Shown: positions 21,878 to 33,056, numbered from the stretch's first letter. The stretch is 64,000 nucleotides of DNA from Escherichia coli (GCF_051903065.1 NZ_CP178438.1); one strand, 5' to 3'. Numbers and translations: made by a program. Notes: generated by a model not told the origin, from the sequence alone.

Positions 21878-22966
21878 TTACGCCAGTACGCCAATTGCCA
21901 GCGCGCGATCGATAAAACGAAATATCAGCTCCAGTTGGGAGCCATACTTATCTTCAAATGCCACTGTATCCGTATGCAGCTCGTTGTGATGCTTTCTGCA
22001 CAAAGGCAACACAAAGAGATCATGTGCTTTTGTTCCCATTCCGCCCTGCCCGTGACCAATCAGATGATGCGGATCGTCGGCTGGCATACCGCAGCAAGCA
22101 CACGGCTGTGTCTTAACCCAACGTGTGTATTTCTCCTTAACCCAGCGGCGACGTTTAGGCAGCTTCATGAAAGATTCCGGAGACTCTGGATCAACGGTGA
22201 TGCTTACCACCGTCTTTTCCTGTGGTGATTTTTGTTGCTGGTGGGCGTAAGGCAACGGTGCAAGATTTTTTGTGCGTTGTTTCAATATGCTGGTGGCGGT
22301 CTGCTCTCCCGGTACGATGTCGCTTTCGCGGTACACCGAGCAGATTTTTTCCGCTGGTAATCCCAGCGAACGACGCGATACAGCCTCAGGTAGTGCATCC
22401 ACCACCTGATTGCAGACCGCCCACCAGGATAATTCAGCCAAAGATAATTCCCGCTCCTGCGTACCGCTTATTGCGTGACGGATGACGTCAATCACCCATG
22501 CTGTCAGATTTTGTTGAGCAAGCAGCTCCAGTGATTCCGATGTCTGGTCACGCAGTTGGTTGTCGCAGTGCCAGCACAACACCATTGCGCCGGTACCATA
22601 ACGGTGAATGACTGTTTCAGTGTGATGGTAATCGCCATTAGGCCACTGGCAGGATGTAACATGACGTAATAGCCAGTCGGACAATGCGCCAACGCCGCCA
22701 GCAGCACGAATCACCCGTTCGTTACTAAAAAACGGCAGCAATGTTTTGTCTTCCGCCAGCGGCTGGCGAACGGCAGGAACGACTCCGGATGGCAGATTAC
22801 GCATGCTTTTTGGTTCCGGTTCCACCAGCACTCGAGGATTATGAAATATCTGTATGGATTCACGGCCCGGCTTAAGGACCACCAGCCCAAGCTCAGGCAC
22901 CAGAACAGGTCTAAGTAATACCCGCACGTTACCTCCAGATCCGTTGCTGGAAAGTGCGGGACGCAC
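21878..22966 (-). CDS. ydfU: prophage protein YdfU with C-terminal HNH-type motif
   Basis: 362-aa ORF; C-terminal CACCGMPADDPHHLIGHGQGGMGTKAHD...CRKHHNELH. Confidence 0.75.
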   Translation of the reverse strand: MRPALSSNGSGGNVRVLLRPVLVPELGLVVLKPGRESIQIFHNPRVLVEPEPKSMRNLPSGVVPAVRQPLAEDKTLLPFFSNERVIRAAGGVGALSDWLLRHVTSCQWPNGDYHHTETVIHRYGTGAMVLCWHCDNQLRDQTSESLELLAQQNLTAWVIDVIRHAISGTQERELSLAELSWWAVCNQVVDALPEAVSRRSLGLPAEKICSVYRESDIVPGEQTATSILKQRTKNLAPLPYAHQQQKSPQEKTVVSITVDPESPESFMKLPKRRRWVKEKYTRWVKTQPCACCGMPADDPHHLIGHGQGGMGTKAHDLFVLPLCRKHHNELHTDTVAFEDKYGSQLELIFRFIDRALAIGVLA

Positions 22967-23207
22967 GTGGTGGGCGTTCGGAATAAGGCAGCCTGACAGA
23001 GATTATCCAGTGCCGATAGTCGAGACTGAGAGCTTTCTTAACCTCGAACCCGCGCCTGCGGTAAGAATGAATCAGCCATTCGGCCTGTTCTGCAGTGCAT
23101 GGAGGGTGCTGGAACCATTCAGACTTGAATGCGTGAGAATACCGCCCGTGCGTGCAGGCAAGAACGGGCGAATTATCAGAATTGTAATATTTTGCGTTGC
23201 GTGCCAT
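22929..23207 (-). CDS. hypothetical prophage protein (92 aa)
   Basis: ORF with protein-like composition overlapping predicted ydfU start by ~38 nt; no family assigned. Confidence 0.4.
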   Translation of the reverse strand: MARNAKYYNSDNSPVLACTHGRYSHAFKSEWFQHPPCTAEQAEWLIHSYRRRGFEVKKALSLDYRHWIISVRLPYSERPPRASRTFQQRIWR

Positions 23208-23273
23208 CGGTTTTCTCCGGTGGCACGGTGTTACTCAGCGGGAGTTCAGCCCCGCGCAAGATTGTAGATGAGT

Positions 23274-23525
23274 TTATTCTCCTGAAAAAGCAGAAAAGCC
23301 AGCTTTTATTCCGATCTCTTTCAATGCCTGTAATGAAGTGACAAACTCACCTTCGCGCAAGATAAATCCGTCCGTGACCCGAGCATCCACAAAATTAATT
23401 AACGCAGCCCCATTCTTTCGCAAACACATAATGCGGTAATGACTAACAAGATTTCCATTTTCAACGCACACAGCATAGAGGCCATCTTCACAAAAAATTT
23501 TACGCAGTTCTTCGATGTTCATCAT
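23274..23525 (-). CDS. rem: prophage protein Rem
   Basis: 83-aa ORF MMNIEELRKIFCEDGLYAVCVENGN... Confidence 0.8.
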   Translation of the reverse strand: MMNIEELRKIFCEDGLYAVCVENGNLVSHYRIMCLRKNGAALINFVDARVTDGFILREGEFVTSLQALKEIGIKAGFSAFSGE

Positions 23526-23640
23526 CAGAATCCTTCCGGATAATTAGCTCTCCCCTTTAAGGGACCATCCCTCTTATCCCTGCGCGCTACTTAAGTATTT
23601 TTGATTCTATTCCGGCACCGTCCAGAACTTCAAACGCGTT

Positions 23641-23673
23641 GAAAATAAAAACAAAAACCCGCCGAAGCGGGTT
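23641..23673 (-). terminator. Rho-independent terminator downstream of relBE-hokD
   Basis: Stem AACCCGCTTCGGCGGGTT followed by T-rich run on minus strand. Confidence 0.65.
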
Positions 23674-23741
23674 AAGTGCGGGTGCGTTGAGGATGCCTGC
23701 CACATCAGAGGTGGCGAGGGATTTCTCCCCCGCCGGGTCTC

Positions 23742-23897
23742 TTACTCCTCAGGTTCGTAAGCTGTGAAGACAGCGACCTCCGTCTGGCCGGTTCGGATTC
23801 GTACCTCGCAGAGGTCTTTCCTCGTTACCAGTGCCGTCACTATGACGGTTAAACAGATGACGATCAGGGCGATTAACATCGCCTTTTGCTGCTTCAT
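23742..23897 (-). CDS. hokD: Hok-family small membrane toxin (RelF)
   Basis: Hand translation: MKQQKAMLIALIVICLTVIVTALVTRKDLCEVRIRTGQTEVAVFTAYEPEE (51 aa); not in supplied ORF list. Confidence 0.85.
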   Translation of the reverse strand: MKQQKAMLIALIVICLTVIVTALVTRKDLCEVRIRTGQTEVAVFTAYEPEE

Positions 23898-23968
23898 AGC
23901 CTGCTTCTCCTGTCAACGCAAAGCAGAAGTGTCACCTTCGGTGCGAAACAGAGATGTCATGCTTTGGT

Positions 23969-24256
23969 TCAGAGAATGCGTTTGACCGCCTCGCTATATA
24001 CTTCCGAGCGTTCTCTTTTCCCAACAGAAATCACGAAAACGACAACTTTCTCGTCTATAACCTGGTATACAAGGCGATAGCCTGAAGACCGGAGCTTAAT
24101 CTTGTAACAATCAGGCATACCACGGAGCTTGTTTGCTTCAATCCGGGGTGACTCAAGTACTTCAACCAGCTTCTTTTTCAACTGTTCACGTACCGTCGAG
24201 CCCAGCTTTCGCCATTCCTTTAGTGCCCGCTCGTCAAAATCCAGAAAATACGCCAT
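23969..24256 (-). CDS. relE: RelE mRNA interferase toxin
   Basis: 95-aa ORF MAYFLDFDERALKEWRKLGSTVREQLKKKL... Confidence 0.9.
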   Translation of the reverse strand: MAYFLDFDERALKEWRKLGSTVREQLKKKLVEVLESPRIEANKLRGMPDCYKIKLRSSGYRLVYQVIDEKVVVFVISVGKRERSEVYSEAVKRIL

Positions 24257-24495
24257 CAGAGTTCATCCAGCGTCACACGTACTGGCTTAGGATTACGAAG
24301 CCGTTCTTTCACTATCTCCACAAGTTCAGCATCTTCATCACTCAGGAGTGTCTGTTTGAACGGCAAGCGTTCATTGTCAGCGATATACTCGAGCATGAGA
24401 CGAAGCGCTTCAGAAGGAGTTACACCCATTTTTTCAAGCGCGGCGTAAGAACGCGCTTTAAGTTCATCGTCAATACGCAGGTTAATGCTACCCAT
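24256..24495 (-). CDS. relB: RelB antitoxin
   Basis: 79-aa ORF MGSINLRIDDELKARSYA...; overlaps relE start. Confidence 0.9.
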   Translation of the reverse strand: MGSINLRIDDELKARSYAALEKMGVTPSEALRLMLEYIADNERLPFKQTLLSDEDAELVEIVKERLRNPKPVRVTLDEL

Positions 24496-24504
24496 GTCTT
24501 ACAC

Positions 24505-24535
24505 CTCTTGTAATTACAAATGTCATTACAAGTAT
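24505..24535. promoter_or_regulatory. relBE operator-like inverted repeats
   Basis: CTTGTAATTACAAATGTCATTACAAG: palindromic TTGTAAT/ATTACAA elements just upstream of relB. Confidence 0.55.
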
Positions 24536-24825
24536 CGCACTACAACATGCTTAGGGCAAGTCACGAAGGAAGTCAGAAAGTAGTCGTAAGAACGGTGATC
24601 ACTGTCCGCTTTGTGCCAGGAGCAGCCATTGCTAAGTCCATCCTGTATTGTGCAGGTCAGCTCGTTTTTAAAGAGTCCGGCCATCATCTTACTGGTACAG
24701 ACACCATATACTTTGTGACGGTCAGGCTACATATGCACAACTCAACTTATTCATCTATTTTTTGCTTTAGCATGTCAGTGTTGCTTTCTCGTCGGCGGGT
24801 GAGCGGTGACCTGACCTGTCGATAA
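24520..24825 (+). CDS. ydfV: prophage protein YdfV
   Basis: 101-aa ORF divergent from relB. Confidence 0.6.
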   Translation: MSLQVSHYNMLRASHEGSQKVVVRTVITVRFVPGAAIAKSILYCAGQLVFKESGHHLTGTDTIYFVTVRLHMHNSTYSSIFCFSMSVLLSRRRVSGDLTCR

Positions 24826-24977
24826 AGGAACGTAACACGTTTTATGCAACACCCGCATGCGGCAGAAAATTATTGCCGAACGTTTACCCCTGTCAACAAG
24901 CTTTACTTTCTGAGGCGCGCCAGCCCGCGAGGAAAACAATCTGAACATCAAACAATTAATGACACAAGAAATACGAT

Positions 24978-25004
24978 TAAAGATTTTTTTGTACATGCCG
25001 ATAG
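24978..25004 (+). promoter_or_regulatory. sigma-28 (FliA) type promoter upstream of flxA
   Basis: TAAAGATT-N11-GCCGATAG versus consensus TAAAGTTT-N11-GCCGATAA, 24 bp upstream of flxA ATG. Confidence 0.7.
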
Positions 25005-25027
25005 TGCTTTTTTAAAAGGAGAAATCT

Positions 25028-25360
25028 ATGTCTGTCACAATTCAGGGAAATACCTCAACCGTTATTTCAAACAACTCCGCCCCGGAAGGAACATCAGAAA
25101 TAGCCAAAATCACAAGACAAATTCAGGTGCTGACTGAAAAGCTTGGGAAAATCTCATCGGAAGAGGGGATGACGACACAGCAGAAAAAAGAAATGGCTGC
25201 ATTGGTACAGAAGCAAATTGAAAGCCTCTGGGCTCAACTGGAGCAGTTGTTAAGGCAGCAGGCAGAGAAAAAGAATGAAGACGCGACAGTTCAGCCTGAT
25301 AAAAAAGAAGAGAAAAAAGACGATACAAATACCGCTGGCACCATTGATATTTACGTCTAA
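25028..25360 (+). CDS. flxA: FliA-regulated protein FlxA
   Basis: 110-aa ORF MSVTIQGNTSTVISNNSAPEGTSEIAKITRQIQ... Confidence 0.85.
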   Translation: MSVTIQGNTSTVISNNSAPEGTSEIAKITRQIQVLTEKLGKISSEEGMTTQQKKEMAALVQKQIESLWAQLEQLLRQQAEKKNEDATVQPDKKEEKKDDTNTAGTIDIYV

Positions 25361-25374
25361 GTGACAGCCGTATT

Positions 25375-25397
25375 GTGGCCCTCATCGGGCCACTTTT
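25375..25397 (+). terminator. Rho-independent terminator after flxA
   Basis: GTGGCCC-TCATC-GGGCCAC followed by TTTT. Confidence 0.7.
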
Positions 25398-25796
25398 CGC
25401 CATCAGCCTTTTCTTTAAAGACATATTATCTTTGTATCATTTCTGATAGTTAACATTACAAGATATAAGTAATGGACGCACTCCCAATTAGTCTATTTAA
25501 ATCGCCACGAGTTTAACTGACAACCCATGATCAATTATGAATTGCAACTATTTCTGTAGTCACTTTTGTGGGGACAGTCCACAAAACTGCCAACTTCCGC
25601 TTCTTGCTCTTAGCGGACATTAGCATAGGCTATTTACCATAACGCCTCATTACGCACACCGCCCAGACTGACTCAGCGCGTTTCTGGCATATCCCCGGTA
25701 AAACAAGTAACAAACCACCCGAAAATGAACACCAGAAACGCGACTTAAGAATCTACCCTATGAATGGATATGCACTCAACCGAATCGATCTTGGTT

Positions 25797-27110
25797 TCAA
25801 TCTTTTTTATCGGGATCAGGCTTCTTTTTAGGTAACTTCGGGGGCTTAACTTGCTGATGACTTTGCGTTCGGCGCGTAAGCCAGGGATGGTCAGCTTTAG
25901 GTTTAACATAGTATTTTGAGCGTAAATCAATACGGGCATTATCCACTCGTTCATGGACACTCTTTTCATCATCCGGTGGTATAGGCTCCGGGCCATCAAC
26001 ATACTTTTCCCAGCCCAGCGCTTTCCCGTCATACAGAACGTTAATTTCACCGTCAAAGTTCTCGCATACAGTAACAACCGAATGCCTAAGTCGATATCCC
26101 CGGCCCTCACTGCGTACCTGAAACGCACTGCTTTTGTACTGGAAAGTGAGATTTTTAGACAGAACGCGCTTCGCCTGTAGGCTGAAGATATAACCCAGTT
26201 CCTCTTCAGAATGGTGCACATCAAGATGAGCATTATCAGTAGTACGAGGCGACGTAGCGAACCGGTTGTTATAGGCTTCAATAAAGGTCGGCAACCATGC
26301 ATTTGCTGTTTCAATATCACTGATATTCTGAAGCCGCATTTCTTTGACCAGCCTGTCCTGTAGTGTCTGATTGGCGCGCTCTACCCGCCCTTTTGCCTGC
26401 GGGCTGTTGGCATGGATTGGCTCGATGCCCAGTGTCTTTATCGCACGAGTGAACTGGGTCAGCTCACCTTCCCGCTCTGGGTTATTTACCCTGAATATAC
26501 TGTGTCTATCAGAGTAGAGAGCGAGCGGTACGCCATGATCATTAAGGTAACCCCGGAGGGTTTCCATGTAAGCCCGGGTTGTTTCAGCAGGCACAAAACG
26601 CAACGCCATCAACGCACTGGTGGCATCATCAATGAAAACGATCAGTGTACATCTGGGGCCTCGATTTTCAAACCAGTCATGAGATGAGCCATCAATCTGG
26701 ATCAGTTCACCGTAAGATGGTCGTCGCATGCGGCGTTGATATATACGGGCAATTTTACGACGGCGTTCACGCCATAACCCCTCTTCTATCATCCACTTTC
26801 TGAGAGTTTCAACGGATAAAGATAAACCGTGTATCTCGCGCAATTTTTCGCACGCAAACGTAGGTCCAAAATCAGCGTAACGGCCTTTGAGGAGTGAAAT
26901 TACTGTTGCTCTGAATTCAGTAGAAAAGGAATTATTAGGACGCTTTCCACGTCGGTGGGAAACCAGACCAGAAGGCCCTTCATTTCTATACCGTTGCACC
27001 AGACGTTTAACCTGCCGAATAGAAATGCCAATGCGTGCCGCAGCTTGTTCCTGAATAATCTGAAGTCGGTGGAGTTCCTTATGACTCATCGTAACAGTCT
27101 CTTTGATCAT
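25797..27110 (-). CDS. DDE transposase/integrase with N-terminal HTH and rve (retroviral-integrase-type) core; IS481/ISNCY-like, family not confirmed
   Basis: 437-aa ORF; motifs ...IQIDGSSHDWF..., ...VFIDDATS..., ...HANSPQAKGRVERANQTLQDRL...; element ends not identified. Confidence 0.7.
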   Translation of the reverse strand: MIKETVTMSHKELHRLQIIQEQAAARIGISIRQVKRLVQRYRNEGPSGLVSHRRGKRPNNSFSTEFRATVISLLKGRYADFGPTFACEKLREIHGLSLSVETLRKWMIEEGLWRERRRKIARIYQRRMRRPSYGELIQIDGSSHDWFENRGPRCTLIVFIDDATSALMALRFVPAETTRAYMETLRGYLNDHGVPLALYSDRHSIFRVNNPEREGELTQFTRAIKTLGIEPIHANSPQAKGRVERANQTLQDRLVKEMRLQNISDIETANAWLPTFIEAYNNRFATSPRTTDNAHLDVHHSEEELGYIFSLQAKRVLSKNLTFQYKSSAFQVRSEGRGYRLRHSVVTVCENFDGEINVLYDGKALGWEKYVDGPEPIPPDDEKSVHERVDNARIDLRSKYYVKPKADHPWLTRRTQSHQQVKPPKLPKKKPDPDKKD

Positions 27111-27444
27111 GAAAAATCCCCCAGAGAATTGTCTGGGGACATTTTAGAATGGTTCAAAGGGGACATTACAGCTTGGTGTTAACAATAGCCTGCTTCTCCG
27201 TGCCTTTCGGCACGTAAGAGGCTAACCTACATGTGTCTAGCATGAAATTGGCCTCAGATTAATGTTAAGCGTCTTGCAGGACGCGTAATGTTAACTGGGG
27301 CTTTTCTCTATCTGCCGTTGGTGTCCATGCCCGAGGCAGATAGCCTCAAGCACCCGCAGTCATTCTACTTAACTAAGATTTCCCCGCAAACCGTTTTTGT
27401 CCAGCACAGTAAATATCCAACTAAACCAATGGAGTTCGCTGTAT

Positions 27445-27624
27445 TTACCGCCAGTATTCAATGCACATGACCGCCATGAACACCCCTAAAAAAAGGGCAT
27501 TTATATATCCAAATATTAATATCAAAACATCAACTTTTTCCATATACCTTGCTGTGAAGATGATGGGCATACATGATGCGAACAACCAGAACGCAACAAA
27601 CAAAAACTGCAATGCGTTTTTCAT
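27445..27624 (-). CDS. small membrane protein, 59 aa, two predicted TM helices, unknown function
   Basis: AGGAGG 4 nt upstream of ATG; MKNALQFLFVAFWLFASCMPIIFTARYMEKVDVLILIFGYINALFLGVFMAVMCIEYWR. Confidence 0.5.
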   Translation of the reverse strand: MKNALQFLFVAFWLFASCMPIIFTARYMEKVDVLILIFGYINALFLGVFMAVMCIEYWR

Positions 27625-27878
27625 TATTCCTCCTACAATCAATGTGCAATTACATTTAAACACACCTCAATTTGGCCGGACATATAAATATCTAAACCAG
27701 AAAAAATCACTTACATAGCGTTACAAACTCTTTAGTCTAAAGGTTCATCGTAAAACATTCCCCATACTTATCAGTCCGTTCCGCGCCAGGTAGCTCATTG
27801 CCTTATCTGGCAACCTGTAATCAGGTTTCCGCTTTTTCAGTTGGCTGGTCGTTTAACCGACATAGTTAATCCATTAAT

Positions 27879-28166
27879 CTAGTTGCCGGATGTTGGTGGA
27901 TTTTCGCGTTTTAGTTGTTCATAAAAGTGCACAGCTTTAACCAGTTCTTCTGATGTAACTGGGACTGGTGAGGCAGTGAATAAGGCCTGAATTTGATAGT
28001 TCGGCCTGTCGTTACAATCCTCTTTTTTCGGTACATATTTCCAGTCACCAGACCACTACTTCCCCTGAAAGTCCGTAACGCCTTTTTTCACGTAGCGATA
28101 TCGCCATGCCACTGGTTTTGCTTGCCCCGCCGTTTCATGCCCTTCCTGATAATTAATCTCGCTCAT
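27879..28166 (-). pseudogene. small prophage ORF (95 codons) interrupted by one in-frame TAG at 28056-28058
   Basis: Hand translation MSEINYQEGHETAGQAKPVAWRYRYVKKGVTDFQGK-TAG-WSGDWKYVPKKEDCNDRPNYQIQALFTASPVPVTSEELVKAVHFYEQLKRENPPTSGN. Confidence 0.45.
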
Positions 28167-28354
28167 TCATCGCCCCACTCATCACAATATGCTTCGACCG
28201 GAGTTTTTCCCGCTTCATAGTCATCACGCTAGGATTCGACATCAGCAGCACTTCCACCGCGTAACTCACCATAGTCCATTAATAGTTCATCCCGCTCTTC
28301 AAAACTGATGTTATATTTAGCTGAACAAAAATCAGCCACTTTGTTCTTCCTCAT
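28163..28354 (-). pseudogene. small prophage ORF (63 codons) interrupted by one in-frame TAG at 28229-28231; stop overlaps next ORF start (ATGA)
   Basis: Hand translation MRKNKVADFCSAKYNISFEERDELLMDYGELRGGSAADVES-TAG-RDDYEAGKTPVEAYCDEWGDE. Confidence 0.45.
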
Positions 28355-28403
28355 CGTCTTTTATTTCGTGGTATGAGTAATTGCAGTAGTTAAAGAAAAT
28401 TTC

Positions 28404-28514
28404 TTATGCTCCGTCATGAATTTCCTCAGGTGTTGCGTCATCGTCCACTTCGAATACATCCTCAAAATCTCCACCAGCTATTCCCGTTTCAATAATAATT
28501 TTGAACTTTCGCAT
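28404..28514 (-). CDS. possible small acidic ORF (36 aa) at head of degenerate small-gene cluster
   Basis: MRKFKIIIETGIAGGDFEDVFEVDDDATPEEIHDGA; may itself be a fragment. Confidence 0.25.
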   Translation of the reverse strand: MRKFKIIIETGIAGGDFEDVFEVDDDATPEEIHDGA

Positions 28515-28776
28515 TTCACTACCGCCCTTTCGGGCGGCCTCCTGATGTTCTGAGGGTGCAGAAATCCATCCGGTTAAGGATTAAATTTTATTTACAGAAC
28601 TGAATTTAATTATTCAGATATACGTATCTGTAGCCTTACGAATCTACTCACTGGATGCCTCTTTCATAAAAATAATCCAGTGGGTTTTATCGTTTTTTCC
28701 CTGTTCGTTGACAGATAACAGGTTTTCTGTCTGTCAGTGCCAGAATCTGGCTTACCGGTATTTGCGTTTCATTCCA

Positions 28777-29133
28777 TTAAAAAATCAGAACGCCGTGCGG
28801 CCTCAACACCCGAAAGGCTTCTTTAAATCTCTGTCGCGAATCATCACGCCAGGCATCTTTATTCAGCCGTCCATATTTCTTTCCCATCCAGGCGTTATCA
28901 CCAACACTCTCAAGATGCGGAGGGTCTAATACAACCATCGAAAAAGATGCGTCTGCAAATGATAATGCACGAAAATCTGCGATAATGTCAGGGCTGATAA
29001 TCAAGCGTCTCCCATTGCGTAATGTGTATCCTTCTTTTCTGATATCGCTGAATATCGCCCGTTCGTCAGACTTATCGAACCAGAACATGCGGCTGCCACA
29101 GCACATATCAAGAATGGTTGCCGGTGCACTCAC
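28777..29133 (-). CDS. SAM-dependent methyltransferase-like protein, probably truncated (118 aa)
   Basis: Motif I-like LDMCCGSRM and motif IV-like VVLDPPH; ORF too short for a complete DNA methyltransferase. Confidence 0.5.
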   Translation of the reverse strand: MSAPATILDMCCGSRMFWFDKSDERAIFSDIRKEGYTLRNGRRLIISPDIIADFRALSFADASFSMVVLDPPHLESVGDNAWMGKKYGRLNKDAWRDDSRQRFKEAFRVLRPHGVLIF

Positions 29134-29552
29134 TGCGCCACGTCCTGAAAATTACCCTGATAGAAAGCCAGTATGCGCTGCATAACTTCGCTCTTCCGGC
29201 ACTCGCGACAGATTATGTTTAGGCGACTGTCGTAGCGACGTATTTCTCCGTCAGGTGATGACCAGATAAGGTCCGGATCAACCACAGCAGGTTTCTTCAC
29301 CTTTGCCCTCGAGAGTTTTTTGCGGGCGTTTTGCCAGTCCTTACGCGCCTGTTCAGAGGGGAATAACCCGTAGCCGGAGTTGTATACATCGCCACTGGCT
29401 ACCAGCTCTCTGGCAAGAACGCTCATCAGATATCTAGTCGCACCTGTTTTAGCTTCCAGTTGCCGTAACGTCTCACGGCCGCTCTGGCGCACGAGTTCCA
29501 CCACCTGCCATTTAATTTTTTCCCGCTCTTCTTGTGTAAAAACTTTTGCCAC
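29130..29552 (-). CDS. hypothetical protein (140 aa), translationally coupled to downstream methyltransferase-like gene
   Basis: Stop overlaps next start (ATGA at 29130-29133); HTH-like segment TLRQLEAKTGATRYLMSVLARELV. Confidence 0.5.
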   Translation of the reverse strand: MAKVFTQEEREKIKWQVVELVRQSGRETLRQLEAKTGATRYLMSVLARELVASGDVYNSGYGLFPSEQARKDWQNARKKLSRAKVKKPAVVDPDLIWSSPDGEIRRYDSRLNIICRECRKSEVMQRILAFYQGNFQDVAQ

Positions 29553-29592
29553 AAGTCCCCCTTAAAATTACCTCATGACCTGAAATCAACAC

Positions 29593-30558
29593 TTATCCTC
29601 TGAAACCAGGCGGAATTTCTGTATCCGGTTCAGAAATATGATTAACACAACGCTGTACAGGTGAACGTCCCAGGCGGATGACCAGTTCGTCCCATTTTTC
29701 GAGGAGCTTTGACGGGCTCATGATGTTTTTTACCCAGAATGGATCTCGCTGAACCCGACCAAACATTTCGCAAATTTGTCTGTGGCTTCTGCCATCCAGC
29801 ATCCGCATTGTGCGCACGTCATTGGCCCAGGCAGTCCAGTTAGGCTCTTTTGGTCGCATGATCTCGCCATCATCACTGGCTGCCTGTTCGTAGAGACCCA
29901 CGATCCGCCCCCAGATCCACTGCGCACACGCCAAATCCTCCCTGCTACCCCACTGGCGTTTTTTCGCACTAAACACAACCGCGTCGGAGTTCCGGGTTAA
30001 AAAATCCTGTTCAGTCGTCTGCGGGTCCGGTTGCGAAGCTTCCGGACGAAAAGTGTTTTTATTCTCTGTAGTAATCTCTGTTGTATTCTCTGTAAGATCA
30101 TCAGGCCATTTTGACCCGATGACATTGGGTCGTTTTGAACCAATGGAGCGTTTCATTTTGACCTCTTCCATCGTGTCATTTTGACCTGATGGAGCGGCGC
30201 ATTTTGAACCGATGGATTCGCTCAATTTGCCACCATCTAAAAGCTCGCTCCCATAGTTGATCGTGTAGAAATTGGTCATATCGCGCTTTGATTTATTGAG
30301 CTTTTCACAACGCAAAAGCCCCAGCGTTTTCAGACTTGCAAACGCGCGCTTTAACGTTGACTCTGACCAGAATGGGAACTGTTCCAGCCATTGTTCCGTT
30401 GTGTTATAAATCCAGCGAACACCATCACATTCCATGCCGGAGTTGGTATCTCTCAACCAGTAGTGCAGTTGTTGCAAAACAATGGCTTCGTTTAAGCCAA
30501 TTTTCATTGCCAGCTGCGTGTTTATAACCAGTGGGCGTTCAGCAAAAAGAAGGCTCAT
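29593..30558 (-). CDS. lambda O-like replication initiation protein
   Basis: ORF 29593-30612 (start probably Met at 30558); C-terminal region ...WANDVRTMRMLDGRSHRQICEMFG... resembles lambda gpO; iterons inside gene. Confidence 0.75.
   Translation of the reverse strand: MSLLFAERPLVINTQLAMKIGLNEAIVLQQLHYWLRDTNSGMECDGVRWIYNTTEQWLEQFPFWSESTLKRAFASLKTLGLLRCEKLNKSKRDMTNFYTINYGSELLDGGKLSESIGSKCAAPSGQNDTMEEVKMKRSIGSKRPNVIGSKWPDDLTENTTEITTENKNTFRPEASQPDPQTTEQDFLTRNSDAVVFSAKKRQWGSREDLACAQWIWGRIVGLYEQAASDDGEIMRPKEPNWTAWANDVRTMRMLDGRSHRQICEMFGRVQRDPFWVKNIMSPSKLLEKWDELVIRLGRSPVQRCVNHISEPDTEIPPGFRG
30105..30240. repeat. iteron array (5-6 copies, ~23-24 bp period) inside O-like gene: candidate replication origin
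   Basis: Repeated CATTTTGACC/CGTTTTGAACC...GATGGA units at ~30107, 30131, 30154, 30177, 30201, 30224; flanked by AT-rich TCTCTGT repeats. Confidence 0.7.
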
Positions 30559-31060
30559 AATTCCATCCAGCTTTTTGTTGGTATTGCTGTCGATACGCAA
30601 GTTTGAAAGCAATTGCTTTTTCTATAAGTTCGTCAGTTTCACGATCCACTACGGCAGGATCAGCAAAAAGCAGTCCGGACTCCACCACATCGCCATATTC
30701 TTTGTTTAACCCGGCGATCATGCACGTGATGCTTTTTCCGTCAGTAATTTCACGATACAACCTGAAATCATTAATCCGGATAGCCTCCATAATTGCAGGC
30801 ACTAGCGCCGTGAACTTTTCACGCTTATCCCTGGTGTCGATAGCCTTCCAGCGTTCAAATATCTTCACTCGATTAACGCCAAGCGCTCGCTGATCAATCG
30901 CGCCACCTTCATATGTGACACGCTGAACATCGATGTTCGGGCGCTCTTTCAAAGCCCAGAATGCTTCAGTGATTAATATCGTCGCCTGCTCCTGTGTCAT
31001 TCCTGGTCGACATATCCAGGCATCCAGAGCCTCACGAGCCTGTTCAGGAGTGATTTTCAT
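30539..31060 (-). CDS. YdaT-like protein (cII-position regulator analog)
   Basis: 173-aa ORF downstream of cro-like dicC; ...DKREKFTALVPAIMEAI... resembles Rac YdaT by memory. Confidence 0.55.
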   Translation of the reverse strand: MKITPEQAREALDAWICRPGMTQEQATILITEAFWALKERPNIDVQRVTYEGGAIDQRALGVNRVKIFERWKAIDTRDKREKFTALVPAIMEAIRINDFRLYREITDGKSITCMIAGLNKEYGDVVESGLLFADPAVVDRETDELIEKAIAFKLAYRQQYQQKAGWNYEPSFC

Positions 31061-31274
31061 TGTTCAACCGCCCCGCCCGCTTCGTCTTACGATATTCATC
31101 ATAAACTTTGGGATCATACTGAAGCTCCCCGCCAGATGCCTCCTGTAGACGCATCGCGCGACCTTCGGGAACTAAATCCCCTTTCCAGCTATAAAGCGAA
31201 GCCAAACGAATACCTGCTGCTTGTGCAAGTTTTGTTTTTGAACCGAAATACAAAAGAGCGTCAGTTTTAAGCAT
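31044..31274 (-). CDS. dicC: Cro-like repressor DicC
   Basis: 76-aa ORF MLKTDALLYFGSKTKLAQAAGIRLASLYSWKG...; divergent from dicA. Confidence 0.85.
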   Translation of the reverse strand: MLKTDALLYFGSKTKLAQAAGIRLASLYSWKGDLVPEGRAMRLQEASGGELQYDPKVYDEYRKTKRAGRLNNENHS

Positions 31275-31357
31275 TTAAAACACCTTTATTGTTAGCCATA
31301 ACTAACAAGATAGATGTTAACAAAAACATAGTCAATACGATTTAGCATTAGCTAACT

Positions 31358-31765
31358 ATGGAAACAAAAAATTTAACTATCGGCGAACGCATCAGGTATC
31401 GTCGGAAAAACCTCAAACACACCCAAAGGTCTCTTGCTAAAGCCCTGAAAATCTCCCATGTGTCTGTATCACAATGGGAACGGGGTGATAGTGAACCTAC
31501 AGGGAAGAACCTTTTTGCCCTCAGCAAAGTATTGCAATGCTCACCAACATGGATTCTATTTGGCGATGAAGACAAGCAACCAACACCACCTGTTGAGAAG
31601 CCAGTTGCCTTATCCCCCAAAGAACTAGAGCTCCTTGAGCTGTTTAATGCACTGCCAGAATCAGAACAGGATACCCAGCTCGCCGAAATGCGAGCTCGAG
31701 TAAAAAACTTCAATAAACTCTTTGAAGAATTACTAAAAGCCCGTCAGCGGACAAATAAAAGATAA
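31358..31765 (+). CDS. dicA: CI-like repressor DicA (HTH_XRE)
   Basis: 135-aa ORF METKNLTIGERIRYRRKNLKHTQRSLAKALKISHVSVSQWERG... Confidence 0.9.
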   Translation: METKNLTIGERIRYRRKNLKHTQRSLAKALKISHVSVSQWERGDSEPTGKNLFALSKVLQCSPTWILFGDEDKQPTPPVEKPVALSPKELELLELFNALPESEQDTQLAEMRARVKNFNKLFEELLKARQRTNKR

Positions 31766-31931
31766 CATCATCAATGAGTTATCTTTTACCACATCAATTA
31801 TGTTAGCTATAGCATACAAAATCACTTGACCGATATGTTAGTCATGGCTAATCTTGTTTGCATCAACACACCGCACGGTGTTCTCAGCAAACAGTTCCGC
31901 TACCCCAGCGTTAAGGGGAAATGAGGTCAGC

Positions 31932-32087
31932 ATGGATACTATCGATCTTGGCAACAACGAATCTCTGGTGTACGGCGTGTTTCCAAACCAGGACGGCACG
32001 TTCACCGCAATGACGTATACCAAAAGCAAAACGTTTAAAACCGAAAATGGTGCCCGTCGCTGGCTGGAAAGAAACTCAGGTGAGTGA
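31932..32087 (+). CDS. ydfA: small prophage protein YdfA
   Basis: ORF 31854-32087; likely start MDTIDLGNNESLVYGVFPNQDG... Confidence 0.7.
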   Translation: MDTIDLGNNESLVYGVFPNQDGTFTAMTYTKSKTFKTENGARRWLERNSGE

Positions 32088-32088
32088 T

Positions 32089-32217
32089 ATGGATTTCGAC
32101 ACAATCATGGAAAAGGCTTACGAAGAATACTTCGAAGGCCTTGCCGAAGGCGAAGAAGCTCTCAGCTTCAGTGAGTTTAAACAGGCGCTTTCCAGTTCGG
32201 CAAAATCTAACGGCTGA
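32089..32217 (+). CDS. ydfB: small prophage protein YdfB (42 aa)
   Basis: Hand translation MDFDTIMEKAYEEYFEGLAEGEEALSFSEFKQALSSSAKSNG. Confidence 0.7.
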   Translation: MDFDTIMEKAYEEYFEGLAEGEEALSFSEFKQALSSSAKSNG

Positions 32218-32246
32218 TAAGCGAAACAGCACCGCGAGGAATCAGT

Positions 32247-32465
32247 ATGCAGAAACGAGAACCCGTCATCATCGCGCCAGACTATACCGATGATGAACTT
32301 TATGAGTGGATGCGCCAGAAAATTAATGCAGCGCAGGATCTGAAATGGGCTAATGAAGCCAGGGCTAAGCAGGCTGAAAATCTGTCCGCTCTGGAGCAGG
32401 ATATCACCAATCTGGAAAAAGCAGCGGCATTAAGCATTGCCAGAATGATTACATACCCGCGTTAG
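32247..32465 (+). CDS. ydfC: small prophage protein YdfC
   Basis: 72-aa ORF MQKREPVIIAPDYTDDELYEWMRQKINAAQDLK... Confidence 0.8.
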   Translation: MQKREPVIIAPDYTDDELYEWMRQKINAAQDLKWANEARAKQAENLSALEQDITNLEKAAALSIARMITYPR

Positions 32466-32805
32466 TAGCTAATCAACAAAGCTAAGGTTAGTAATTAAGG
32501 AGTTCTCCACGGGTGAGGTGGAGTGCGTGCGCCGGACACGGGTGCGCATCCGGAACTGACAGTTTACTGAAAGGATATTTCCCTGAAAAGTCAGACCATA
32601 ACGCGAAAGCGCACGGCGAGGTAGCTGGTTCATAGATAGCCTGTCGTTAAATTTTCATCGACCGTGCGCTTCCGGTTGTGGCAACCCGCGAAATGGCGCG
32701 GCGGTAAGTATGGCGGGGTTATTCCTTCCCCGTTGAGGACACCGGGTTGTCAGGTTGACCATACGCTTAAGTGACAACCCCGCTGCAACGCCCTCTGTTA
32801 TCAAT

Positions 32806-32863
32806 TTTCTGGTGACGTTTGGCGGTATCAGTTTTACTCCGTGACTGCTCTGCCGCCCTTTTT
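32806..32863 (+). ncRNA. dicF: DicF small regulatory RNA (ftsZ-targeting)
   Basis: TTTCTGGTGACGTTTGGCGGTATCAGTTTTACTCCGTGACTGCTCTGCCGCCCTTTTT matches remembered DicF with intrinsic terminator; ends approximate. Confidence 0.8.
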
Positions 32864-33032
32864 AAAGTGAATTTTGTGATGTGGTGAATGCGGCTGAGCG
32901 CACGCGGAACAGTTAAAACCAAAAACAGTGTTATGGGTGGATTCTCTGTATCCGGCGTTAATTGTTAACTGGTTAACGTCACCTGGAGGCACCAGGCACT
33001 GCATCACAAAATTCATTGTTGAGGACGCGATA

Positions 33033-33056
33033 ATGAAAACGTTATTACCAAACGTT
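33033..33056 (+). pseudogene. dicB: dicB (cell-division inhibitor) first 8 codons only; interrupted by IS1
   Basis: ATG AAA ACG TTA TTA CCA AAC GTT (MKTLLPNV) then IS1 left end at 33057. Confidence 0.75.

Follow-up and report, generated by a model that had tools for sequence, protein, structure and literature searches.

Ordinary nonsense mutations as the probable origin of in-frame TAG codons in the decaying nin-like small genes of a Qin-type Escherichia coli prophage

The locus and its prophage

The DNA considered here is a stretch of 64,000 nucleotides from Escherichia coli (GCF_051903065.1, NZ_CP178438.1), hereafter the window, and the locus under study is the nin-like accessory block of a defective lambdoid prophage of the Qin type, encoded on the minus strand. 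The RefSeq gene order begins with dicA, dicC, a YdaT-family gene and an O-like replication gene, continues with DUF977, a methyltransferase gene and a group of small genes, and ends with an ISNCY transposase gene, ydfW, flxA and ydfV. With dicA and dicC upstream and ydfW, flxA and ydfV downstream, this order identifies the locus as the cryptic prophage Qin (Kim), and both identity and synteny with dicA, dicC, ydfX/ydfW, flxA, ydfV, relBE and hokD of K-12 agree with the assignment. Sequence matching this region is present in 2,649 E. coli records. Features are collected in table 1.

Alignment of K-12 positions 1644000–1650500 to the window by blastn gives two matches, at 99.9% identity over window positions 22623–25981 and at 99.8% over 30781–33056, with abutting junctions. 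Since the two K-12 flanks abut in the alignment, the window sequence between them is a segment that K-12 has deleted, and it is this segment that holds the entire block. The K-12 gene ydfW corresponds to the last 49 codons of the insertion sequence (IS) transposase, and ydfX to the N-terminal portion of the YdaT-family gene, joined at the deletion to sequence from the other side. Both K-12 genes are thus remnants at the two edges of the deletion, and the undeleted form is found in the window.

In its intact state, found in many prophages and phages, the block comprises three overlapping, translationally coupled genes that encode a DUF7167 protein of 60 aa (gene 1), a 58-aa protein (gene 2) and a 171-aa protein (gene 3). 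It is flanked in intact lambdoid relatives by replication genes on one side and by hok and the Q antiterminator on the other. Orthologous genes in the same order and with overlapping starts (ATGGCTGA, ATGA) occur in the nin-type blocks of functional lambdoids (vB_EcoS-640R1, ArgO145 and the prophages of FWSEC0008 and 3CM); there they are mostly intact (60, 58 and 119–171 aa), with gene 3 already dead in vB_EcoS-640R1, whereas in the window all of them are disabled. An earlier note on this DNA, made from the sequence alone, had suggested pseudogenisation of a nin-like small-gene block, and both the intact genes of many genomes and the position of the block bear this out. RefSeq annotation by PGAP already labels gene 1 'internal stop' and gene 3 'frameshifted; internal stop', and the pseudogene status of these two genes is therefore known.

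Membership of gene 1 in the DUF7167 family is clear from its intact ortholog in the related locus L010, residues 2–53 of which match Pfam PF23768 with E = 3.1e-14; the PGAP name is likewise DUF7167 family protein, and the PHROG match is phrog_1997. Gene 2 matches phrog_519 and gene 3, whose intact size ranges from 119 to 171 aa, matches phrog_660, neither having a Pfam family, and a search of NCBIfam found no model matched by any of the three small proteins. Against Rfam, the interval 27300–29000 gave a single hit, to sok, which lies beyond the end of gene 3 at the border of that interval, and no structured RNA that would explain the open reading frames (ORFs). Counts from a promoter and terminator scan were at or near the shuffle expectation.

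Table 1. Features of the block and its surroundings in the window.
Feature	Position	Strand	Remarks
Segment missing from K-12 MG1655 Qin by clean deletion	25982..30780		4.8 kb; holds the whole block studied; blastn
SAM-dependent methyltransferase pseudogene	28659..29133 (lower boundary approximate)	minus	Aligned to the intact 157-aa gene of L012
Gene 1 translation initiation region	28522..28543	minus	AGGAGG at 28543–28538, hairpin at 28537–28522, 7 nt to ATG
Gene 1, DUF7167 family, pseudogene here	28332..28514	minus	60 aa when intact; AAA>TAA at codon 37
Gene 2, pseudogene here	28163..28339	minus	58 aa when intact; TGG>TAG at codon 37 (28229–28231)
Patch around the gene 2 TAG	28211..28239	minus	29 nt, GTCGAATCCTNG...; 7 of 13 differences between the window and L016
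Gene 3, pseudogene here	27745..28166	minus	171 aa when intact; aligned to the intact L009 and L010 genes
A6 run in gene 3	28083..28088	minus	2 nt longer (A8) in L002 and L004
sok/hok regulatory RNA region, second hok/sok locus	27184..27355	minus	Rfam sok RF01794, 104 bits, E = 2e-24
ISNCY/IS1202-group transposase ORF	25797..27110	minus	437 aa, full length; PGAP names ISNCY family, ISEsa1 family

Lesions in four consecutive genes

Three ORFs run head-to-tail on the minus strand (28514..28404, 28354..28163 and 28166..27879), the last two sharing an ATGA overlap at 28166–28163, and in-frame TAG codons stand at 28229–28231 and 28056–28058 with the frame open on both sides of each. All of this had been described in the earlier note and is correct. 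Alignment with homologous prophages, which that note had proposed as a check, finds sense codons at both TAG sites: TGG in gene 2 and CAG, CCG or ATG in gene 3. The accompanying description of two interrupted ORFs out of three, each with a single amber codon, stands as far as the reality of both TAGs is concerned, but the first ORF is also stopped, and the TAG that ends the third is a second premature amber codon. Intact orthologs have sense codons at all five stops of the region, namely AAA in gene 1, TGG in gene 2, CAG, CCG or ATG at the first and CAG at the second stop of gene 3, and AAA at codon 119 of the methyltransferase gene.

The methyltransferase gene lies just upstream of the small genes and is the fourth consecutive pseudogene. 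It carries AAA>TAA at 28777–28779 (Lys119) and a 1-nt insertion further downstream (about 28690), its natural stop is lost, and it encodes 118 aa in the window against 157 aa in L012. PGAP describes the copy in L011 as 'frameshifted; internal stop', and the 118-aa version in NZ_LR882050 carries no flag.

In gene 1, the ochre codon TAA at 28404–28406, which the earlier note had overlooked, is premature: every intact relative has AAA (Lys37) at this site, beyond which the frame is open as far as 28332. Between the window and the L010 ortholog 5 of 60 codons differ, the stop among them. A strong AGGAGG is situated 23 nt upstream of the gene 1 ATG, and in the predicted fold the two are separated by a GC hairpin of 6 bp that is capped by a GAAA loop; the region from 28522 to 28543 is unchanged in all relatives aligned. 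The folded hairpin would bring the Shine–Dalgarno sequence to about 7 nt from the start of gene 1, a 'split SD' arrangement.

Gene 2 in fact begins with the GTG at 28339, a position occupied by either ATG or GTG where the gene is intact, and this gives an overlap of 8 nt with the end of gene 1; the ATG at 28354 given in the earlier note falls within gene 1. An intact gene 2 allele with the same GTG start is present in L016, L017 and L018.

Gene 3 has accumulated the most damage. Its first lesion is CAG>TAG at codon 37 (28056–28058), and this is followed by a 90-nt in-frame deletion between AATCCxCCAG direct repeats (junction near 27894), by a second CAG>TAG at 27879–27881, which had been taken for the natural stop of the third ORF, and by a 4-nt deletion near 27848 that shifts the frame before the conserved C-terminus, the end of which lies at 27745. 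Just after the A-run, gene 3 is also frameshifted in 5 of the 28 viral contigs that belong to the same clade as the window, and this stretch of A seems to be prone to repeated frameshifting. Programmed −1 frameshifting had been considered for the relatives with A8, where an A_AAA_AAG heptamer is in phase, and was dropped because the −1 frame meets the same TAG nine codons later.

Taken over the four consecutive genes, the lesions amount to two TAA, three TAG, two frameshifts and one 90-nt deletion. Besides the 90-nt deletion and the 4-nt and 1-nt frameshifts, the hok gene nearby has been truncated by an IS element.

Prevalence and the series of alleles

The block is found at 99% identity or more in 479–508 complete E. 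coli genomes and in 28 viral (IMG/VR) contigs, and the allele in which all genes are dead is carried by about 9% of complete E. coli genomes (479/5426). Identity reaches 100% in many independent complete assemblies, and several metagenome contigs also match at 99% or more. That the stops are sequencing or assembly errors, for which the earlier note had advised resequencing, has a negligible probability in view of this recurrence.

Related loci can be arranged in a series that runs from intact genes to loss of the whole segment. All three small genes are intact in L009 and L010, and also in L005, L008 and L012; genes 1 and 2 are intact in L017, whose contig breaks off after 21 codons of gene 3. 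Only gene 3 is dead in L002 and L004, by the same TAG and deletions as in the window and with the A6 run longer by 2 nt. In L016, which has the same Qin and IS context and is 99.2% identical, and in L018, the TAA of gene 1 and a dead gene 3 accompany an intact gene 2. Next come the window itself, about 480 genomes and the 28 viral contigs, with all genes dead, and last K-12, from which the entire 4.8-kb segment is deleted. Decay is ongoing within the all-dead clade, where there are extra frameshifts just after the A-run, further truncations, and rearrangements by which parts of genes 1–3 are lost.

K-12 Qin offers a close parallel. Its pseudogenes and scars (ydfX, ydfW/intK, ydfE and intQ) belong to the same prophage and locus and show the same kind of decay, by point mutation, small insertions and deletions, IS elements and larger deletion. 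The block has been lost there through the 4.8-kb deletion, and the window represents an earlier stage of decay.

A 29-nt patch around the gene 2 stop

The intermediate L016 differs from the window at seven positions within 29 nt of gene 2, TGG>TAG among them, and at six positions in the remaining 1,535 nt. Such clustering has a probability of about 1e-5 after correction for the number of positions, and suggests either gene conversion over a short tract or a complex mutation. No donor for the patch was found within the window at up to 3 mismatches, nor was a version with a sense codon found among the 28 IMG/VR matches, all of which (28/28) have TAG. An imperfect direct repeat, GGTCGAAGCATAT, lies about 42 nt downstream of the patch (near 28199–28187) and fits three of the patch changes, as judged by eye only.

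The share of TAG and the test of constraint

The specific occurrence of TAG in two neighbouring genes had been singled out in the earlier note as remarkable. This impression is not sustained, since two TAA codons, frameshifts and a deletion lie alongside. The six frames of the window contain 407 stops that are preceded by 35 or more open codons and followed by 20 or more. The share of TAG is 14.7% among these and 14.2% among stop trinucleotides as a whole, which is no excess. The bare pattern is thus not unusual in the window, and it is homology to intact genes alone that shows two real interrupted genes. Random substitutions in the ancestral genes give a stop in 4.6–5.7% of cases, and 32–42% of these stops are TAG, depending on the mutation spectrum. 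The probability that both stops described in the earlier note would be TAG is accordingly 0.10–0.18, and the probability that at least three of the four stops in genes 1–3 would be TAG is 0.10–0.20.

All three TAGs are single G:C>A:T transitions from TGG or CAG. The G:C>A:T transition is the dominant class of spontaneous mutation in E. coli. CAG and TGG are the commonest codons here that lie one transition from a stop, and G:C>A:T changes turn them into TAG, which accounts for the predominance of this codon.

Substitutions private to the window in genes 1 and 2, with the closest intact alleles included in the comparison, number nine: four non-synonymous, two nonsense and three synonymous. The resulting ratio of 6 non-synonymous and nonsense to 3 synonymous changes compares with 18:31 in intact copies, a shift towards what relaxed constraint predicts (Fisher p = 0.14, on small numbers). 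Two nonsense changes among the nine are to be set against 0.4–0.5 expected (P = 0.06–0.09 for two or more), in a region that was chosen for having stops. Polymorphisms within the all-dead clade are 8 non-synonymous to 3 synonymous, a ratio of 2.7 that compares with a neutral expectation of 2.8–3.9 and with 0.58 for intact genes 1 and 2. A first test of relaxed constraint (p = 0.0028) was withdrawn as inflated, most of the changes counted as 'private' being those of an intact divergent allele, which shares with the window the GTG start, C5, A7, I11, R16, D17 and G24 of gene 2 and D54 and S59 of gene 1. Statistical support for relaxed constraint is weak. Since that test was inflated and the region was selected for its stops, pseudogenisation is argued here from the comparative series and from the lesions that occur together, not from statistics.

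Suppression and recoding

A different explanation, raised by the earlier note with the remark that an amber-suppressor host would read through the stops, holds that the TAGs are read through in strains such as supE, and that genes 2 and 3 are conditional genes that function there. The presence of two, in fact three, in-frame TAGs within reading frames that are otherwise largely intact fits this idea, as does the fact that a supE host would decode both CAG-derived TAGs to the ancestral Gln. It is nevertheless very unlikely. No tRNA gene is present in the 64-kb window. In NZ_LR882050.1, a genome in which the block is 100% identical, the metT-leuW-glnUW-metU-glnVX operon has four wild-type tRNA-Gln anticodons (TTG in glnU and glnW, CTG in glnV and glnX), and supE is absent from that genome, the search having covered its tRNA-Gln genes. 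Suppression of TAG alone could at most restore gene 2: the methyltransferase gene and gene 1 end prematurely in TAA, and gene 3 has lost 30 codons and is also out of frame. The allele is moreover found in hundreds of unrelated natural isolates.

Laboratory amber mutants of lambda, such as Sam7, Oam29 and Pam80, are propagated on supE or supF hosts. These too are single in-frame TAGs that arose from CAG or TGG by one transition. The alleles of the window differ from them in being natural, in affecting non-essential accessory genes, in occurring together with TAA codons, frameshifts and a deletion, and in having no supE in the genome examined.

Reassignment of TAG by the prophage itself, or programmed readthrough, would be a more radical possibility. 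In stop-codon-recoded phages, TAG is read as Gln with the help of a phage-encoded suppressor tRNA. In-frame TAGs in open genes are common to such phages and the window, and automatic gene callers working on short contigs have translated the TAGs discussed here as Gln: P0003, P0004 and P0026, three proteins from two public collections, are 'full-length' versions of the gene 2 and gene 3 products in which Gln stands in place of the stop, encoded at L019 205–399, L019 396–725 and L020 289–519. They had been considered as CAG alleles or revertants, which was rejected because the underlying DNA reads TAG and yields no match under table 11. The Q comes from the genetic code that the caller selected, and we infer that it is an artefact, in which the code with TAG as Gln was picked on short contigs because of these ambers.

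Unlike recoded phages, the window encodes no suppressor tRNA and has no excess of TAG-interrupted frames over background. Close relatives have ordinary sense codons at the sites concerned and intact genes ending in TGA, and neighbouring genes carry other types of stop. Recoding by the prophage has already been effectively refuted, and we regard its chances as minute. The Gln proteins are of practical concern nonetheless. Clusters of amber codons in short contigs push gene callers with alternative codes towards TAG = Gln, by which spurious full-length proteins enter large collections, and these could be misread as stop-codon recoding in E. coli prophages.

Stepwise decay or selected truncation

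We consider it highly probable that the two TAGs are ordinary nonsense mutations in accessory genes of a defective Qin prophage that are decaying stepwise, and not a product of suppression or recoding. A prophage that no longer needs to make phage would lose its early accessory genes by mutation that is presumably neutral. Four consecutive genes, for the methyltransferase and the DUF7167, 58-aa and 171-aa proteins, would have been inactivated in separate events of different age, by two AAA>TAA, one TGG>TAG and two CAG>TAG changes, by small frameshifting insertions and deletions and by a repeat-mediated 90-nt deletion, with an IS element truncating the neighbouring hok. Neither readthrough nor suppression would take place, and the products would be truncated or absent, those that are truncated probably having no function. 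The frames around the stops are still open because the lesions are recent relative to the rate at which further stops accumulate. One observation does not fit simple neutral mutation, which fails to explain why the gene 2 TAG lies within a cluster of seven differences in 29 nt. The case carries little biological weight, but it documents cleanly and in good resolution how genes of a cryptic prophage decay step by step.

The first premature stop of each small gene (28406, 28231 and 28058) falls at codon 37 and leaves an ORF of 36 aa, a coincidence with an a-priori probability of about 1e-4 that was noticed post hoc. It invites the alternative that the truncations are adaptive, either as host-selected inactivation of harmful accessory genes or through retention of the 36-aa N-terminal peptides for a function. 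Fixation of the allele in so many complete genomes, the slight surplus of nonsense changes over the neutral expectation and the occasional annotation of the 36-aa gene 1 remnant as an ordinary coding sequence by PGAP would all be in keeping with adaptation. The stops are, however, of different age: that of gene 3 occurs in lineages with intact genes 1 and 2, and that of gene 2 is missing from L016 and L018. Changes gained by the remnants are mostly non-synonymous (G11E, D26N and D30E in gene 1; I4V, A16V, P18T and A20T in gene 3), some remnants are deleted or rearranged within the clade, and K-12 has lost the entire block. Adaptive truncation is very improbable. The coincidence at codon 37 is treated as chance because it was spotted after the fact and because the events belong to different times and different lineages.

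The patch and the codon-37 cuts might also be read together, as the outcome of a templated, gene-conversion-like process or of selection that inactivated a co-translated trio of accessory proteins or trimmed it to 36-aa peptides, and the stops would then not be independent neutral hits. We give this reading little credence; if true, it would amount to 'domestication' of a prophage module by the host and not passive decay. Stepwise decay through ordinary nonsense mutation remains the reading that we prefer.

Downstream neighbours

Beyond gene 3, the sok/hok region belongs to a second hok/sok locus of the prophage. Its leader region is complete. The IS element breaks into hok at the start codon, where homology to L010 and L002 ends, and from this ATG onward IS sequence (25797–27184) stands in place of the coding sequence. 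Another hokD, intact and corresponding to that of K-12, lies near 23742–23897. In one protein of the collections, P0031, codons 1–33 of gene 2 are joined without a gap to the last 29 residues of the IS transposase, which means that some genomes must have lost further DNA between gene 2 and the IS element.

Between gene 3 and sok, at 27445–27624 on the minus strand, there is a small and very hydrophobic ORF (MKNALQFLFVAFWLF...) of about 59 aa counted from the ATG after GGAGGAATA. It is conserved in L002 and lies on a segment of about 270 nt that is absent from L010. RefSeq leaves it unannotated in this DNA, and phage records place a gene on the other strand instead; it may encode a small membrane protein.
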